Assembly: GCA_044892525.1 (NCBI GenBank)
Contig: CM097885.1
Location: 3,784,001 to 3,848,000, forward strand
DNA: 64,000 nt
Reading direction: 5' to 3'
From: Schmidtea polychroa
Lineage: Eukaryota
Each line of letters starts with the position of its first letter. Within the stretch, counting starts at the first letter, position 1. Under the pieces are notes generated by a model that worked only from the letters and a program-made list of their open reading frames with translations, had not been told where the DNA came from and did no database searches. Both the position numbers and the translations under genes were made by a program. Positions 34,501 to 40,500 of the stretch are shown one piece after another.

Positions 34501-37500
34501 TCTTCAAGAAAGGTTTATTATTTTTAACCAATGAGAAGTAAGAAAAAGGAAATAAAAGAGAAGATCAAAGAGCATTTTAGAAAATAGAAGAAGTTAAACT
34601 CCATGAAATTGAAAAGGACTATCTTAAAGTCAAACATTTTTTCATTTGTATTAAATACATTATTCGCTGCAAAAGACTTAAATTATAATTTAATTGTTTT
34701 TAAATTTAATTAATGCTCCTATTAAGTAATAATAATAATAATAAAACATTCAAAGAATGCGAGTATTATACCCACTCGCTTATTTTACTTGTTTAGCTCG
34801 TTTTTAATTGAGTACGCAACTCTACATTTGTATGACTAGTGAACGTTAATAAAATCAAAAAATGTCACAGAAAAAAATGAGTAGGATAGAATGATTCCTC
34901 ATTTTATAGTATTCAATATCCACTTAGTACGTATTCTTTCTAGCATTCATGAAATAATGCGTTAATGTTATAATTATTAATATTATTATTATTATTATTA
35001 TTATTATTATTATTATTATTATTATTATTATTATTATTATTATTATTATTATTATTATTATTATTATTATTATTATTATTATTATTATTGTTATTATTAT
35101 TGACTTTGTTCAATGGCCATATTTATATGGGTGAAATTCAGATTTAGTCCTTCATATTTTTGATTAAATTTATCTAAATTATTTAATGTGAATATTTATT
35201 TTAGAGAAGACATCCAAAAACATTGTGCTAAATATTTTGGTTCCAAAGACATAGAGCCGATAAATGGAATAGAATTCGAAGGCAAGATAATAGCATGCCT
35301 GAAAGAGAAGTTCACCAACGATAGTCAACCTTTGAAATCGACGTGTCGTAAAAGAATTTTAAAGGTTTGCTATTTCATTTGATCAGATGGCTAATTATAT
35401 CTTCTAATATATATATATATATATATATATATATATATATATATATATATATATATATATATATATATATATATATATATATATATATATATATATATAT
35501 ATATTTCACAAAATTTTTATCTGTTTACGCCTATACTCAGCCTTAATTTACAGTCAAATTCCACCAAATTAGACAAGGATACTGTTGTGGAGATGAACGA
35601 GGTATTTTGTGGTTTGGACAGATGTTGATCAATCGATAAAAATATTGTAATGACAGTTAAGCCACTAAATACTGAAGCCAAAAACACGCAAATATTTCTA
35701 ATAATTAACGGGGAATTCAATAACTGTAATATATAACGTTAGGATCAATCCTGGGTATATTGTTCCATCAACTATTCCACCAAGTGAATACCAAGCTCTT
35801 TCATCAAAACAATTCACAAAATTGAAAAATCCATTTTCAACAATATAATGAGTTGCACAATAGTTAAACCATAGATGGAATTCACGGATTATACTTTCAC
35901 ATCGAATTACATAAAATAAACGTCAACAATTAGTCAAGCCAGTGATAAAATAAATAATGTCAAAACAATTCGCCAGTAAATGCAATTTAATGAAAGATAG
36001 ATTATCTCCCCTGAAAGTAACTTTTGTCAGCAAAGATACGAGAATAAAATTGTTAATATTGGAATTTAGTGAATTTTCTTGAAAAGCTTTCGCGGCAGAA
36101 ATTAAAGAATTGTAAATAATGATGAAAAATAAAATCCAAAATCCGAATTGACACATAAGAACCTTTATTTCCCAAATTTTGTTTACAATAGATTGTGAGA
36201 ATAACTCGACAATAAATTCCCGATTTTAATCCAATAATCCAAACTTCAAGATTCAAAAATGATTTTTAAAACTAATTCACAAAAAATAATTGTTTTTTGT
36301 GATTTAACATAAATAACAATTAAACATTTTTTACAAACTTAACAAGTAGTGTGGTTATATACCCAACCAAAACAGCCCCCCAACAAAAACATGCCTCCAA
36401 ATCACTTAAGCTATTAGAAAAACAACCTAAAACTTATACTTTTATAGTATTTTAACCCTATATTTTGAAAACAACCACCCTTAATGACTCTAACTGTTTT
36501 AATCTTTAAAGCCTCAAACTCAAAAGCTTCAAACTAAAAAGAGAATAGAAAAGAAAATGGCATTATGAAAAAGTTAGAGGGCTATTTGATCTTTATCAGA
36601 TTATTGATTTTAAATTATATAAATTAAAAAATAAATGAAAAATAGTAAAACTGCTCTGAGGGGACAGTGGTATTTTTTTTTTTTTTTTTTTCACTGTCCC
36701 CTCAACAGTTTTTTTTTATCCGGATCATTTTTTTTATTTATCAACCTCTTTCGTTTATCGAATCTCTTCCAATATACAAGCTGGCCAGACTCATACATCA
36801 GAATCAATCCGATAATAGCAGCACACCTTATTATTCGCTTCTCGCTCGAATACGATTTCATCGGCGTTTTAAGTGTGCTGCTCGAAAGTACAAATGAATT
36901 CGAAAGCGAATTCGAAAGAGGTCCGAAAACAACTGAGAAATAAATGTGCACATTAAAGAATCGATCCGGGGGTGTTCGAAAGACAGGTGGCGATAATTAC
37001 CGGTTCGCCACCATCACCCGTTTCAATATTTTTTTTTTCATATTTATGTTTAAAAAATAATTAATTAATAAAAAAATAAAATAAAATAAAATAAATAAAA
37101 TAAAATATACAAGTACTTTATAAATATAAGATACCCACACTATTATTTTCAAATTTTTAATATTATTTTATGTTGAAAAAAATCTTACCACAGTTAGGAT
37201 TTGAACCACCATCCATTTGAAACACTGTGCCAGTCTATTCCCACTGCGCCATCAAGGTTTGAATTTTTGTCATTTTTTTAATTTTTAATTTATAAAAAAA
37301 TAAAATAAAATAAAATAAATAAAATAAAATATACAAGTACTTTATAAATATAAGATACCCACACTATTTTCAATATTATTTTCAAATTTTTAATATTATT
37401 TTATGTTGAAAAAAAACTAACCTCAGATGTGATTTGAACCGCTAGCATTTTGAACCACTGTGTCAGTCTAGCCCACTGCGCTATCTAGGATTAGATTATT

Positions 37501-40500
37501 GTCACTTTTTAAATTTTTATTATAAAAAATGAATAATATAAATCTTAAAAAATAAAATGAAAACAGGGTATCCCATAAAAAATTTTTTTCTAAAAATGAA
37601 TTGTAATATTTGCAATAAAGTTTTTAAAAATAAAACTGGATTAATTTCTCACTTAAAATCGAAAGCTCATTTATTAAAAGAAAATAATCTTAATGATACA
37701 AATTCAAAACTTTGTCTTAAATGTAAAGGAAGATTTCTACATTCTGGATATAATAAACATTTTGAAAATTGTATCGGGAAAAATAGAGAAATATTTACAT
37801 GTCCTCATTGTAACTTTTCAACAAAACTAAATTTCTATTAGAACATATAAAAGAATGTAAAAATAAAAAACAAAATTCTGACGATGAGGAATGTCATTCA
37901 GAAGGAGAGCCTGATCATGTTGAAAGAGAAAAATATAACTGGGATAATTTTAATAATATAGATGAATTTCAATTAAAAATTAATGGGCCTGCAACTCCTG
38001 GAGAATATATAAATAAAAATAAAAAAAATATTAAAAATTCTTTCACTGAAGCTTTAAAAAATTATAAACCGACAAGGTATAATGTTATAAAATATAAAAT
38101 TATAATCAAAGCAAAATACTGGCGAGGAGCAGAAGTAAAGACAACACCCTTAGATGTTGAAATTGGAATACCTTTTAAATATTTATTTTCAATTAAAGGA
38201 TTTGATAAAACCATCAAAGAAATAATTAAAGCAGCAGAAGCAAAACAAGAGGAAGTAGAAAATGAATTAGGAGATTCAAACTTAGTATTCAACTCTTTCC
38301 AAACTTTAGTGATTGATTATTGGAGAGGATTACCACCCAATCCTAAATCTTATATTCCTACACCCTTTAAATCTAAAAATGTTATAAATGTACAGAATAA
38401 TGATAACAAATGTTTCATCTGGTCAATACTTGCACATTTACATCCTCAAGCAACAAATCCCCAAAGAGTTTCAAAATACAAACAATATGAAAATGAATTA
38501 ATATTTCCCAAAGGATTCAAACACCCAATGAAACTAGAAGACATTCCAGAATTTGAAAAATAATATAATCTTAAACTTAATATTTATGAACATGTTATAG
38601 GGAAAGAAATTATTCCAATTTATATTTCAGATAGTGGAACCAAGGATAACGGAGCACAGGACAACGAGATATATCTTTTAATCTTGGAACAAGAAAATAA
38701 TCAACATTATGTTTTAATAAAAAACTTTCAAGCTTTTACATCTCCAGAGAATCCAACTAGTGGAGGAGGAACATGTAAAAGATGTCTTCATTATTCAACA
38801 ACTAAAAACTCTATGATTAAACATACAAGATTTTGTGAAAAAGATGATCCAGCTTTAATTAAAATGCCTAATAATCCCAAGATGTATTTTAAAAACTTTT
38901 CATATTTACTACAAACAGTAGGAGTGCTTTATGGGGACTTTGAATCTATAAATCGTAAACAAGATTTGGTTAAACAATATTTAAAAATAATAGAAAAAAA
39001 TAAACTCATGGATTCCTGGAACTCCTCAGGAGAGAAGATGAAACCAGAGAGGATGAAAGCCTTTCTAAGAAAAAGAAATAAACCTAATAGTGTTAAAAAA
39101 ACTAAACAATTACCATCTGCTTATAAATTATTATTTAAAAGTAATTATCCTGAACTCATAGAATCTAGAGAATATTCAATTCTAGGAGGTACCCCTGAAG
39201 AAGTCTTGAATCATTTTACTAAAAGTATAAATGATCTAGAACATGAAATATTTAAAGTATTAAAAACAAACTATCCTCAAAATATTTCTAATCAACAACA
39301 ACAAGAATATGAAAATACTTCCAACTGTTGGATGTGTAAACAGAATATTCTTCCTGATGAAAAAGTTATAGATCATGATCATTTAAAAAAGGAAAATAAT
39401 TATCGAGGAGCAGCTCATAAAAATTGCAATCTTAATTGTCATACTCCTAAATTTATACCTGTTATATTTCATAATCTTTTTGGATATGACATACATCTAT
39501 TTATTAAACACCTCGCAGCAAATGCTAAAAACTCTTTCAAAGTTATCGGCTTAACAAAGGAAAAATATAAATCAATTGAATATGGAAAATTAAAATTTAT
39601 AGACTCGTTAAACTTTCTCCAAATGTCTTTAGATGCAGTAGCAAAAACAATGAAACCAGAAAATTTTAAAATCACTCGAGAATTCTTGGAAAAAAATAAT
39701 ATTCCTCTAGAAGAATATCCTACATGTTTAGCAAAAGGAATATATCCTTATGACTATGTTGACTCGTTTGAAAGATATAATGAAACAAGTCTTCCTAGCC
39801 AAGAAGATTTCTATTCACAACTTCAAAAAAATCATATTACAAATCAAGAATATTCTCGAGCAAATAAAATGTGGGAATTATTCAAGTGTAAAACTTTAGG
39901 AGAATATACAAGTATGTATTTATCCTTGGATGTTTATATTCTAGCAGATTGCTTTGAAGAATTTACAAAATCTTTTGTTCTTAAACCTTATAATTATATA
40001 ACTGCACCCTCTTTAGCTTGGGATACTATGTTATATACCATTTGGACTTCAAATATAGAAGAAGGTGATAAAATTATAGATCTTTTAACTAACCTCGATA
40101 TGTTTAACCAAATTAAAACAAACATTAGAGGAGGAGTCTCTTCAGTAATGGGGAATAGAGAAATAAAAGCTAGAAATGCAATAACTACTAGCCGAAGACT
40201 ATCTAAACACCCTGATGATCCATATATGAAAATTAACAATGAGGAATTAAAAGAATTATTAGAAACAATGAAAAATCCTATATTTATACTTTATATAGAT
40301 GCAACAGCTTTATATTCAGGAATTATGACTCAATTTTTACCAATGGGTGATTTCACTGAAATAGAGAACCCAACAGATGACCTTATGAAAGAAATACTTT
40401 CAACATCGAAAGATTCTCCAATAGGTTACTTTATAGAATGCGACCTCGACTATCCAGATGATATAAAATCAGGAACAAGATATTTTCCTTTAGCTCCCAT

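Follow-up and report, generated by a model that had tools for sequence, protein, structure and literature searches.

Adenoviruses and other eukaryotic DNA viruses are considered to be related to, or descended from, Polintons, whose non-coding content is, to our knowledge, almost unstudied. Adenovirus VA RNAs are ~160 nt long with extensive structure; their type-2 Pol III genes, often two in tandem, lie internally in the genome. The TMERs of murine gammaherpesvirus 68 have heads that fold as cloverleaves and can be cut by RNase Z. In tDNA and 'extra TFIIIC' barriers, boxes are conserved without conservation of an RNA; this is a host-genome phenomenon, and we know of no Polinton for which barrier activity has been tested. 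Among mobile elements, TRIMp3 (Cassandra, Helenus, and Ajax) has been described as a group of LTR retrotransposons whose terminal repeats contain Pol III promoters derived from 5S or tRNA (Kojima, 2024; PMC10886601). A survey of Polinton-like viruses and virophages records 558 tRNA matches in ~8,300 genomes; these tRNAs are canonical, were found by Rfam or ARAGORN, and are discussed as codon compensation (PMC12220804).

The locus considered here lies in a window comprising the whole 64,000-nt stretch of DNA analysed. It is the terminal repeat of a Polinton, and it contains two short minus-strand units with A and B boxes, together with a diverged third. No description of such Pol III units in a Polinton was found in the literature searched.

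The Polinton and its terminal inverted repeat

The host element is a Polinton/Maverick of autonomous type and ~15 kb, as the earlier note had held: it encodes PolB (PF03175), an integrase (PF00665) and an A32 ATPase (PF04665), sibling copies carry a capsid gene, and it has long inverted repeats and 6-bp duplications (Table 1). In the window copy, pPolB consists of two overlapping ORFs (38813-40567 and 40564-41871), and the look-alikes of this polymerase in the Atlas carry PF03175. Sibling copies carry the double jelly-roll capsid gene (PF21738) in their right arm. The window gave no match to the interiors beside the right-hand repeat of nine sibling loci, and its copy appears to be without a right arm, including the capsid gene and right repeat.

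Homology among 30 sibling loci begins at 36338-36345 (in some loci only at 36595), and in 13 of 30 near-identical loci the match ends at 37509-37513, adjoining a different, capsid-encoding interior. Repeats on opposite strands form pairs 13.5-13.6 kb apart, with perfect 6-bp target-site duplications in two of two pairs (GGTATC and TCTGAG). Because the repeats are inverted and separated by this distance, and are not direct LTRs, membership in TRIMp3 was rejected. Being contained in this inverted terminal repeat, the units are found at both ends of each element, pointing outward. The family comprises thousands of copies, with >2,000 terminal repeats in the genome. The original placement of the units beside pPolB was right as to the Polinton end, but they are inside the terminal inverted repeat and a C2H2 zinc-finger ORF intervenes. 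This ORF is the first gene inward of the repeat, is divergent from the units, and shows 93-100% amino-acid identity among the sibling loci that carry one.

Table 1. Features of the Polinton and its terminal repeat, with positions in the window.
Feature	Positions	Strand	Details
Left terminal inverted repeat of Polinton	36345..37511		~1,167 bp; terminus 5'-AGTAGTGTGG on + strand
Candidate structured RNA headed by unit 3	36647..37022	-	300-375 nt; folding energies
Diverged unit 3	36958..37022	-	fuzzy motif search (18 copies) and collinear alignment with unit 2
Unit 3 B-like box	36967-36958	-	GGATCGATTC
Unit 3 A-like box	37010-37000	-	TGGCGAACCGG, then 32-nt spacer
Inverted copy of element's terminal 12-mer	37131..37142	-	TAGTGTGGGTAT; conserved flank downstream of unit 2
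Short unit 2	37176..37257	-	span including T-run; body 37257-37188, 70 nt
Unit 2 T7 run	37182-37176	-	
Unit 2 B box	37207-37198	-	
Unit 2 spacer, A box to B box		-	33 nt
Unit 2 A box	37251-37241	-	TGGCGCAGTGG, exact
Inverted copy of terminal 12-mer	37355..37366	-	TAGTGTGGGTAT; downstream of unit 1
Short unit 1	37409..37489	-	span including T-run; body 37489-37421, 69 nt
Unit 1 terminator-type run T8	37416-37409	-	
Unit 1 B box	37440-37431	-	GGTTCAAATC
Unit 1 spacer, A box to B box		-	32 nt
Unit 1 A box	37483-37473	-	TAGCGCAGTGG, exact
C2H2 zinc-finger ORF	37557..37841	+	PF12874, E = 3.8e-7
Protein-primed DNA polymerase B (pPolB)	38813..41871	+	PF03175 in second ORF
A32-like packaging ATPase	46403..47209	+	PF04665, E = 9.2e-9
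rve integrase	47221..48315	-	PF00665, E = 7.6e-12

Layout, copies and variation of the short units

The A box, spacer, B box and T-run of both short units were found as originally described. In each unit the A box lies at about +8 and the B box at about +51 of a ~70-nt body, which is followed by a 4-nt trailer and T7-T8. This matches the layout of tRNA genes (A at ~+8, B at ~+52, a ~73-nt gene, and oligo-T close behind), and both units possess the two boxes, spaced within 30-60 nt, and the T-run of a type-2 Pol III unit. Two host tRNA genes, Lys-TTT and Arg-TCG, end 3-6 nt ahead of T7 or T6, which is the plan of the short units. The TATA-like stretches reported upstream are present, at about -36 to -26 and -37 to -31, but constitute weak evidence in DNA of ~27% GC.

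The tandem repeat carrying units 1 and 2 has a period of 224-233 nt. From the T-run on, ~130 nt of downstream flank are the same in both repeats save for a 9-nt indel, whereas the cores differ at ~16 of ~78 positions. The contrast between near-identical flanks and differing cores was thus observed as first described, but a simpler reading than RNA selection is available: the cores are mosaics of subfamily alleles (unit 2 of the window copy is such a mosaic, with one private G>T change), and the flank is conserved family-wide together with an inverted terminal 12-mer. Exact sites of this 12-mer lie at 36347 (+) and at the two minus-strand positions in Table 1, compared with 1.09 matches expected with <=1 mismatch. 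Transposons commonly carry subterminal copies of their terminal motifs, and it is conceivable, if improbable, that the ~230-nt repeats serve as cis-acting Polinton DNA, either as subterminal sites for the integrase, terminal protein or zinc-finger protein or as enhancers of inward genes, with the boxes as incidental ancestry. Such a role would suit a region in which the downstream flank, not the core, is most conserved (diversity 0.003-0.03, and ~0.01-0.03 in the flank downstream of unit 2) and holds the exact 12-mer. It accounts for the flank but not for a GC-rich 11-mer and 10-mer of the Pol III consensus, with tRNA spacing and a host-like terminator, that are exact in 96 of 100 copies, and it is compatible with a Pol III-site reading. 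That conservation of the flanks equals that of the boxes also weighs against the promoter-site reading favoured below: the real oddity may be a variable inter-box patch inside a generally constrained region.

The pattern GCGCAGTGG-N25-45-GGTTCAAATC has 3005 exact matches in the 781-Mb genome versus 0 for a reversed control, so the A/B-box match is not a product of chance. The first 100 matches comprise 24 in 12 two-unit repeats, 75 single units and one unrelated match; one short unit per repeat is the majority form, and the two-unit form is a minority. The tandem pair singled out in the earlier note is true of the window copy, but most repeats are single-unit, and the diverged unit 3 is also present. 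Because the number of short units is one or two, dosage does not appear critical; repeat copies L093 and L096 persist with the units deleted. All of 30 pattern matches taken in genome order are flanked by repeat homology. The GC hairpin motif of the repeat was sampled at 69 sites, 63 of which are within 195-1023 nt of a listed unit; the other six are all repeat copies, with either one-mismatch boxes or deletions, and the Polinton repeat context holds for 69/69. These counts led to rejection of a host SINE or dispersed tRNA pseudogene and bear out the original attribution of the units to the Polinton.

Box conservation was assessed in 100 copies picked by their flanks only, with variants tallied by hand. 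Both boxes are exact in 96 copies, the A-box 11-mer is changed in three and the B box in one, and the units recur in sibling copies and several subfamilies with their boxes kept, as anticipated. Variants common to several copies affect ~11 of 33 inter-box positions versus only the degenerate R of 21 box positions (Fisher p = 0.018), and with the R position left out, 0 of 20 box positions differ between subfamilies (Fisher p = 0.004). The Fisher test is modest. The copies are young and related, so only a handful of subfamily lineages underlie the invariance of the boxes. Private changes occur at similar rates in both, with 4 events over the 21 box sites and ~9 over the 33 inter-box sites, as expected of post-insertion decay. 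The inter-box sequence, the "acceptor" ends and the ACUG..CAGU hairpin vary freely across copies.

That the units are a neutral passenger is rather unlikely. A tRNA pseudogene array or tRNA-derived SINE would have landed once in an ancestral repeat, been copied to the other end and been carried by a recently expanded family, so that the boxes look conserved only through youth and recombinational homogenisation. The copies are 96-97% identical and the mosaic cores point to frequent recombination, but subfamilies ~16-22% apart in the outer repeat differ at about a third of inter-box positions and at none of the non-degenerate box positions. Unit 3 with its body and the A8, A9 and A19 tracts looks like a SINE that ends in an A-rich tail; yet no stand-alone copies occur among the 30 and 69 sampled sites, and a first look yielded fewer candidates with the body query (1480) than with the units query (2587), which gives no sign of a larger free family. 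The host also arranges tRNA genes in tandem, the arrays having periods of 278 and 424 bp, which is a possible source of tandem capture, and tRNA-bearing TRIMs have been proposed to originate from a SINE that inserted into an LTR (Kojima, 2024; PMC10886601). A passenger origin is, however, compatible with later use.

Neither short unit is a canonical tRNA gene, in keeping with the initial assessment. ARAGORN found 0 genes in the window at its default and 80% thresholds, forcing odd 'Val' calls only at 70%, and Rfam gave 0 matches at gathering score over the window and no tRNA match to E=10 within 36900-37700; as neither program finds a cloverleaf, this identity was rejected for both units. The earlier note further proposed that the two units encode a VA-RNA-like structured small RNA and keep the ACUG..CAGU hairpin, and neither claim was supported. 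Little likelihood attaches to functional small RNAs from these units, whether as decoys of VA-RNA type that counter dsRNA sensing or RNAi, or as tRNA-like small-RNA precursors. The Pol III gene layout is complete, with a strong terminator whose T-run is kept in all haplotypes seen, and coexisting discrete core alleles could mean diversifying selection, e.g., on a guide or decoy. The predicted folds, however, are no more stable than shuffles (z = +1.0 or 0.0 for unit 1, and +0.1 or +0.7 for unit 2), no Rfam family, including VA RNA, matches to E<=10, and the sole hairpin is broken in common subtypes (ACCG..CAGU and ACCG..CCGU) by non-compensating changes. Each of two 5' "acceptor" alleles is found with each of two 3' ones, all four combinations being present, hence there is no covariation, and ~70 nt without structure is unlike VA RNAs of ~160 nt. 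VA-RNA-like structure in the short units was rejected on the folds and the lack of a VA match in Rfam.

Fixed boxes, combined with a body, "acceptor" ends and hairpin that vary without compensating changes, suggest that selection acts on promoter/TFIIIC sites and not on RNA structure. The short units look like promoter or chromatin sites, not adenovirus VA RNAs, and the TFIIIC-site or insulator option, one of several in the earlier note, seems to fit the data best. The explanation favoured here, with confidence evenly poised, is that the short units are tRNA-gene relics fixed in the Polinton terminal repeat that may act at the DNA level as entry sites for TFIIIC, TFIIIB and Pol III, with putative use by Pol III and a putative barrier or booster role. 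Under this explanation, tRNA genes would have decayed to relics that retain the complete type-2 Pol III layout. In this very abundant Polinton/Maverick family the units are fixed within the 1.17-kb terminal inverted repeat, in a tandem array with a period of ~232 nt that consists of one or two short units and the terminator-less unit 3, which leads into a strong predicted fold of 300-375 nt. Boxes and terminator of the short units are kept across subfamilies as the RNA body drifts and recombines, and transcripts from them would be short, unstructured and probably unstable. Occupancy itself may be the useful effect, providing a tDNA-like chromatin barrier that flanks the integrated element, and/or the short units may boost Pol III transcription of the adjoining structured RNA. 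We infer this barrier or booster role by analogy with tDNA insulators.

A diverged third unit and the region it heads

Unit 3 combines box-like motifs with hairpins further downstream; it has no cloverleaf. Its collinear alignment with unit 2 scores 37, compared with 18.2 +/- 2.9 for shuffles, 1 of 500 of which got there; its T-run is lost, the stretch aligning with it being ATTTATTTC. Unit 3 and its body show the lowest variation within the terminal repeat (diversity 0.000-0.026). The predicted fold of the region headed by unit 3 contains several helices, among them a 12-bp helix and a 24-bp wobble-rich hairpin, and has an energy of -103.8 kcal/mol (z -5.17), or -135.9 kcal/mol (z -10.8) with a terminal hairpin of 21 bp and an A19 loop (36710-36652), beyond which TTTT lies at 36650-36647. 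The opposite strand folds at -83.0 kcal/mol (z -3.6), and the minus strand is the more stable in 30/30 copies. Rfam returned no VA RNA match to E=10 over 36300-37700, which covers this region and the short units. Folding predictions make the unit-3 region a better candidate for a VA-like RNA than the short units.

It is possible, and proposed only tentatively, that the repeat constitutes a Pol III ncRNA system of its own, in which the short units would be auxiliary promoter/TFIIIC sites and unit 3 would drive an outward, folded RNA of 300-375 nt (37022 to ~36647, minus strand) that acts like VA RNA or TMERs as a dsRNA-sensor decoy or small-RNA source. If so, Pol III counter-defence RNAs would be a trait of a Polinton as well as of adenoviruses.

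Conserved units of Pol III promoter type thus mark both element ends in a family with >2,000 terminal repeats. If these are active, each integration would add tDNA-like sites to the host genome, Pol III/TFIIIC occupancy and chromatin boundaries could be reshaped genome-wide, and the element could stay expressed, or make structured RNA, independently of Pol II. For annotation, tRNA-like matches in such genomes may be Polinton repeats.

Comparison with known systems

The units share with tRNA-derived SINEs a tRNA-related head with boxes kept and the cloverleaf lost, as well as A-rich tracts after the unit-3 body, but they differ in the absence of independent dispersal, every sampled site (30/30 and 69/69) being in the Polinton repeat. 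The Polinton-like virus and virophage survey shows that this group of elements can carry Pol III-type genes (PMC12220804); in contrast to those tRNAs, the present units are negative with both tools and are situated in the repeat of an element integrated in a genome whose host genes are of metazoan type. TRIMp3 (Kojima, 2024; PMC10886601) likewise carries a Pol III promoter derived from a small RNA within its terminal repeat, and so at both ends, in a unit that is unlikely to encode a functional tRNA and has a probable origin in SINE or tRNA capture. TRIMp3 elements are short, non-autonomous LTR elements with a primer-binding site, a polypurine tract and 4-5 bp duplications, whereas the present element is of autonomous type and ~15 kb, with inverted repeats, 6-bp duplications, Polinton genes between the repeats, and units in a tandem array of 2-3, one of which heads a long structured region.

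VA RNA genes, which often come two in tandem, resemble the short units in having A and B boxes internally and an oligo-T terminator, and in a carrier with protein-primed replication and a double jelly-roll capsid. The units differ in being short (~70-80 nt), unstructured and located in a terminal repeat, with no Rfam match; only the unit-3 region has VA-like predicted structure, with no sequence relation to VA RNA. Resemblance to TMERs lies in tRNA-type Pol III promoters clustered near a genome end and in a tRNA-like head followed by hairpins, comparable to unit 3 and its 24-bp hairpin; the head of TMERs is a cloverleaf, and none occurs in the three units here. The tDNA and 'extra TFIIIC' barriers are a host-genome phenomenon, but there, as here, boxes are conserved without conservation of the RNA, and the units stand at both borders of the gene block.

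Units 1 and 2 and the Polinton that carries them

Two short minus-strand units, here called units 1 and 2, are the core sequences of a tandem repeat whose period is 224-233 nt; both lie inside the terminal inverted repeat of the element and are oriented outward, facing its terminus. They had been described in the earlier note as tRNA-like units of ~80 nt with A and B boxes, spacers and T-runs that are not canonical tRNAs, and this description proved correct. The tRNA and Rfam searches that it proposed confirmed their non-canonical character: ARAGORN found no tRNA gene in the whole window and nothing for the two units at default and 80% thresholds, while Rfam returned no match in the whole window at the gathering score and, at E<=10 over 36300-37700, just weak sub-cut-off snoRNA and miRNA noise, with no tRNA. 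A selenocysteine or suppressor tRNA, suggested by UUCAAA motifs, was rejected, since none of the stems pairs and Rfam has no match to tRNA or tRNA-Sec.

Features of the units, the neighboring region and the element in the window
Feature	Position	Strand	Basis and remarks
Unit 1 body	37489-37421	minus	Sequence reading
Unit 1 A box, TAGCGCAGTGG	37483-37473	minus	Sequence reading; 32-nt spacer to B box
Unit 1 B box, GGTTCAAATC	37440-37431	minus	Sequence reading
Unit 1 terminator, T8	37416-37409	minus	Sequence reading; 4-nt trailer from body to T8
Unit 2 body	37257-37188	minus	Sequence reading
Unit 2 A box, TGGCGCAGTGG	37251-37241	minus	Sequence reading; 33-nt spacer to B box
Unit 2 B box	37207-37198	minus	Sequence reading
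Unit 2 terminator, T7	37182-37176	minus	Sequence reading
Unit 3 A-like box, TGGCGAACCGG	37010-37000	minus	Fuzzy motif search; 32-nt spacer
Unit 3 B-like box, GGATCGATTC	36967-36958	minus	Fuzzy motif search
Perfect 21-bp inverted repeat with an A19 tract at its center, then minus-strand TTTT	36652-36710		Rfam: sub-threshold miRNA-like only
Conserved C2H2 zinc-finger ORF	Inward of repeat		Gene/domain scan
pPolB	Two overlapping ORFs		PF03175
Several ORFs without assignment	Between pPolB and ATPase in gene order		ORF scan
A32-type ATPase	Same element		PF04665
rve integrase	Same element		PF00665

A pattern consisting of the A-box 9-mer, 25-45 nt and the B-box 10-mer had 3005 matches in the 781-Mb genome and none when reversed, and almost all of the matches listed belonged to one family. 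In the first 30 in genome order, homology to the window extended far past the unit, to 36345 or 36595, in every case; the genome-wide check proposed earlier thus placed all 30 sampled unit sites within Polinton repeat homology, so that neither chance nor a host SINE accounts for them. For the 30 loci closest to the unit pair of the window, homology has its left limit at 36338-36345 in all but a subset, where it is 36595. Copies in which homology starts at 36595 (L011, L018-L021, L030, L070-L072, L076, L079) suggest a subfamily whose outer 250 nt differ or are shortened. In thirteen of the nearest 30 the match ends at 37509-37513 and gives way to another interior, conserved among themselves, which codes for a double jelly-roll capsid domain (PF21738). 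The ATG of this right-arm capsid ORF lies ~770 nt inward of the repeat in the ORF listing, which excluded a start 12 nt from the repeat with unit 1 antisense in its leader.

Matches in opposite orientation are 13.5-13.6 kb apart, and 2 of 2 such pairs examined have perfect 6-bp duplications at their outer ends (GGTATC and TCTGAG) and the element terminus 5'-AGTAGTGTGG. These boundaries, inverted pairs, duplications and adjoining Polinton genes identify 36345-37511 (~1,167 bp) as a Polinton's terminal inverted repeat, the left one. The units belong to it, as real and integral features of an abundant family. The window's copy (36345-48363) is without a right arm, and the capsid gene and right repeat of sibling copies (1-1489 of locus L014) are unmatched in the window. 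In a protein atlas, pPolB-like clusters were commonest in arthropods; a pPolB search found no relatives in viral contigs, and two DNA patterns had no match in metagenome contigs. Beside family copies lie a distant pPolB fragment (L073 2773-3012, 33% identity) and a distant integrase fragment (L076 39-578, 27% identity), which point to further Polinton lineages in the genome.

The element probably sits in a host intron. Host exons flank it, with a Cys-rich FGFR/GLG1-type repeat (PF00839) at 50807-51217 (+) and, on the other side, a similar-looking, domain-unscanned ORF at 33275-33502 (+). A BET-domain exon (PF17035) lies at 60166-61062 (-), and a long ATG-repeat microsatellite at 49866-50060 gives a poly-methionine ORF. 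Host tRNA genes occur in long head-to-tail arrays (loci L031-L060; G000 contigs C4 at ~76.66 Mb, C140, C333 and C474), in which the period is 424 bp for Lys-TTT, with gaps of 848 bp in places, and 278 bp for Arg-TCG.

Variation among copies and the proposed role of the units

Conservation of the boxes was assessed with a pattern confined to the flanks (a 5-mer upstream and a 20-mer downstream), so that the boxes were not selected on. The cores of the first 100 of its 1684 matches were listed and variants counted by hand. Both boxes were exact in 96 of these 100 copies; the A-box 11-mer was altered in three and the B box in one, all four changes being singletons. Variants common to several copies, which represent differences between propagating lineages, fall at ~11 of 33 inter-box positions; of the 21 positions in the boxes they affect just one, the A box's degenerate R (Fisher p = 0.018; p = 0.004 with this position dropped). 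For private changes the density is similar in the boxes (4 events at 21 sites) and between them (~9 events at 33 sites), as neutral decay after insertion predicts. A rival reading takes the units for neutral passengers that go back to the capture of a tRNA array or SINE; the near absence of shared variants from the boxes makes it less likely, though worth keeping in view.

The paired layout holds in the window and fails as a family rule: the first 100 A/B-box matches comprised 12 repeats with two exact units and 75 single-unit matches, so the two-unit form is a minority. The cores resemble mosaics drawn from a small set of alleles; unit 2 in the window is an example and carries a private G>T besides. 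The 5' alleles CCTAGAT and CCTTGAT occur with the 3' alleles ATCTGAGG and AACTGTGG in all four combinations. In common subtypes the ACTG..CAGT hairpin singled out in the earlier note reads ACCG..CAGT or ACCG..CCGT, changes that produce mismatches instead of compensating, and the units fold no better than their shuffles (z +1.0, +0.1, 0.0 and +0.7). The RNA body of the short units thus bears no sign of constraint, and a function of these units as RNA is improbable.

The ~130-nt downstream flank, from the T-run onward, is the same in both tandem repeats bar one 9-nt indel, whereas the cores differ at ~16 of ~78 positions. Copies of the repeat were aligned, 55 in all, after exclusion of four loci that were rearranged or duplicates. 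Diversity is at its minimum at 37020-36641 and in each unit's downstream flank (0.003-0.03); the unit cores vary more, at 0.06-0.11 wherever all subtypes align. The terminal 12-mer of the element, TAGTGTGGNTAT, is found exactly at 36347-36358 (+), 37131-37142 (-) and 37355-37366 (-), each of the two inverted copies falling within the conserved flank that follows a short unit; 1.09 matches per window are expected by chance at <=1 mismatch. The inverted 12-mer may be a subterminal binding site, and a cis site for the element's own proteins would be sufficient reason for flank conservation. Similar flanks around differing cores, taken previously as an anti-neutral RNA signal, are therefore not by themselves evidence of RNA selection. 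Purely element-specific cis DNA would account for such a flank; as an explanation of units whose boxes are exact in nearly all copies, it has little probability.

The units are best viewed as relics of tRNA genes in which the Pol III type-2 layout is still complete. Host tRNA genes have a 3-6 nt trailer followed by T6-T7, a plan that the units match. The part kept appears to be the promoter and terminator, not the RNA, which favors a DNA-level role over an RNA role. On this reading the units would be DNA sites where TFIIIC, TFIIIB and Pol III enter at either border of the inserted element, and these sites would act as a tDNA-like barrier and/or aid transcription of an adjacent structured RNA.

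Unit 3 and the structured region

A fuzzy motif search identified a diverged A/B-box unit, unit 3, in register ~239 nt further out than unit 2. Its collinear alignment with unit 2 scored 37; shuffled sequences gave 18.2 +/- 2.9, and 1 of 500 scored as high. The counterpart of the T-run reads ATTTATTTC, without a T-run. Downstream of unit 3, the repeat reaches its highest GC content and its lowest variability. Folded as minus-strand RNA, 37025-36700 reaches -103.8 kcal/mol (z -5.2); extension to 36640, which adds a terminal 21-bp hairpin and UUUU, gives -135.9 kcal/mol (z -10.8). The opposite strand gives -83.0 kcal/mol (z -3.6). The sense strand is more stable in 30 of 30 copies, related and not independent, by a mean margin of 22.4 kcal/mol. 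G-U pairs make up 10 of the 79 pairs predicted for the window, eight of them in one 24-bp hairpin, and the strands differ in stability because these pairs become A-C mismatches on the other strand.

Across the 30 copies, pairing is retained in 99.4% of cells; the 15 pair-breaking cells are all singletons, and stem variants shared by at least two copies keep pairing in 7 of 7 cases, including one AU>GU>GC series. The shuffle control for covariation was reached in 27 of 500, and with only one pair changed on both sides the formal test is weak. A 30-mer from the first hairpin has 2168 exact genome matches; 63 of the first 69 lie 195-1023 nt from a listed unit, and the other six are all repeat copies with one-mismatch boxes or deletions. 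This repeat context of all 69 sampled sites suggests that the body of the region forms no free-standing family. A search with the body gave 1480 first-look candidates, and all 40 that were scored were 100% identical. The interval 36647-37022 (-), 300-375 nt headed by unit 3 and with a strong fold on the minus strand only, is a candidate Pol III non-coding RNA.

Contig depth over 36345-37900 is very uneven in runs X1, X2 and X7, highest at 36709-37020, and flat in the DNA-like run X3; the kinds of run are guessed, and contig depth cannot rank parts and supports no reading on transcription. Contigs span the unit cores and 36708-37013; as X1, X2 and X7 are only guessed to be RNA, they bear on neither strand nor ends.

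Comparison with known systems

The nearest described design is that of the TRIMp3 group (Cassandra, Helenus and Ajax), which carries 5S- or tRNA-derived Pol III promoters in LTRs; unlike the Polinton described here, these elements are retrotransposons (PMC10886601). Canonical tRNA genes are published for Polinton-like viruses and virophages (PMC12220804), and for planarian genomes a preprint reports an expansion of Mavericks at the level of repeat annotation (bioRxiv 10.64898/2025.12.11.693146). Literature searches yielded no account of Pol III units of a non-canonical kind in the terminal repeats of Polintons.

The proposal that the two short units form a VA-RNA-like pair is not supported: they fail the structural features of VA RNA and of TMER alike. 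For the structured region beside them, a VA-like reading may still apply; with unit 3, this region resembles VA RNA and TMER in design only.
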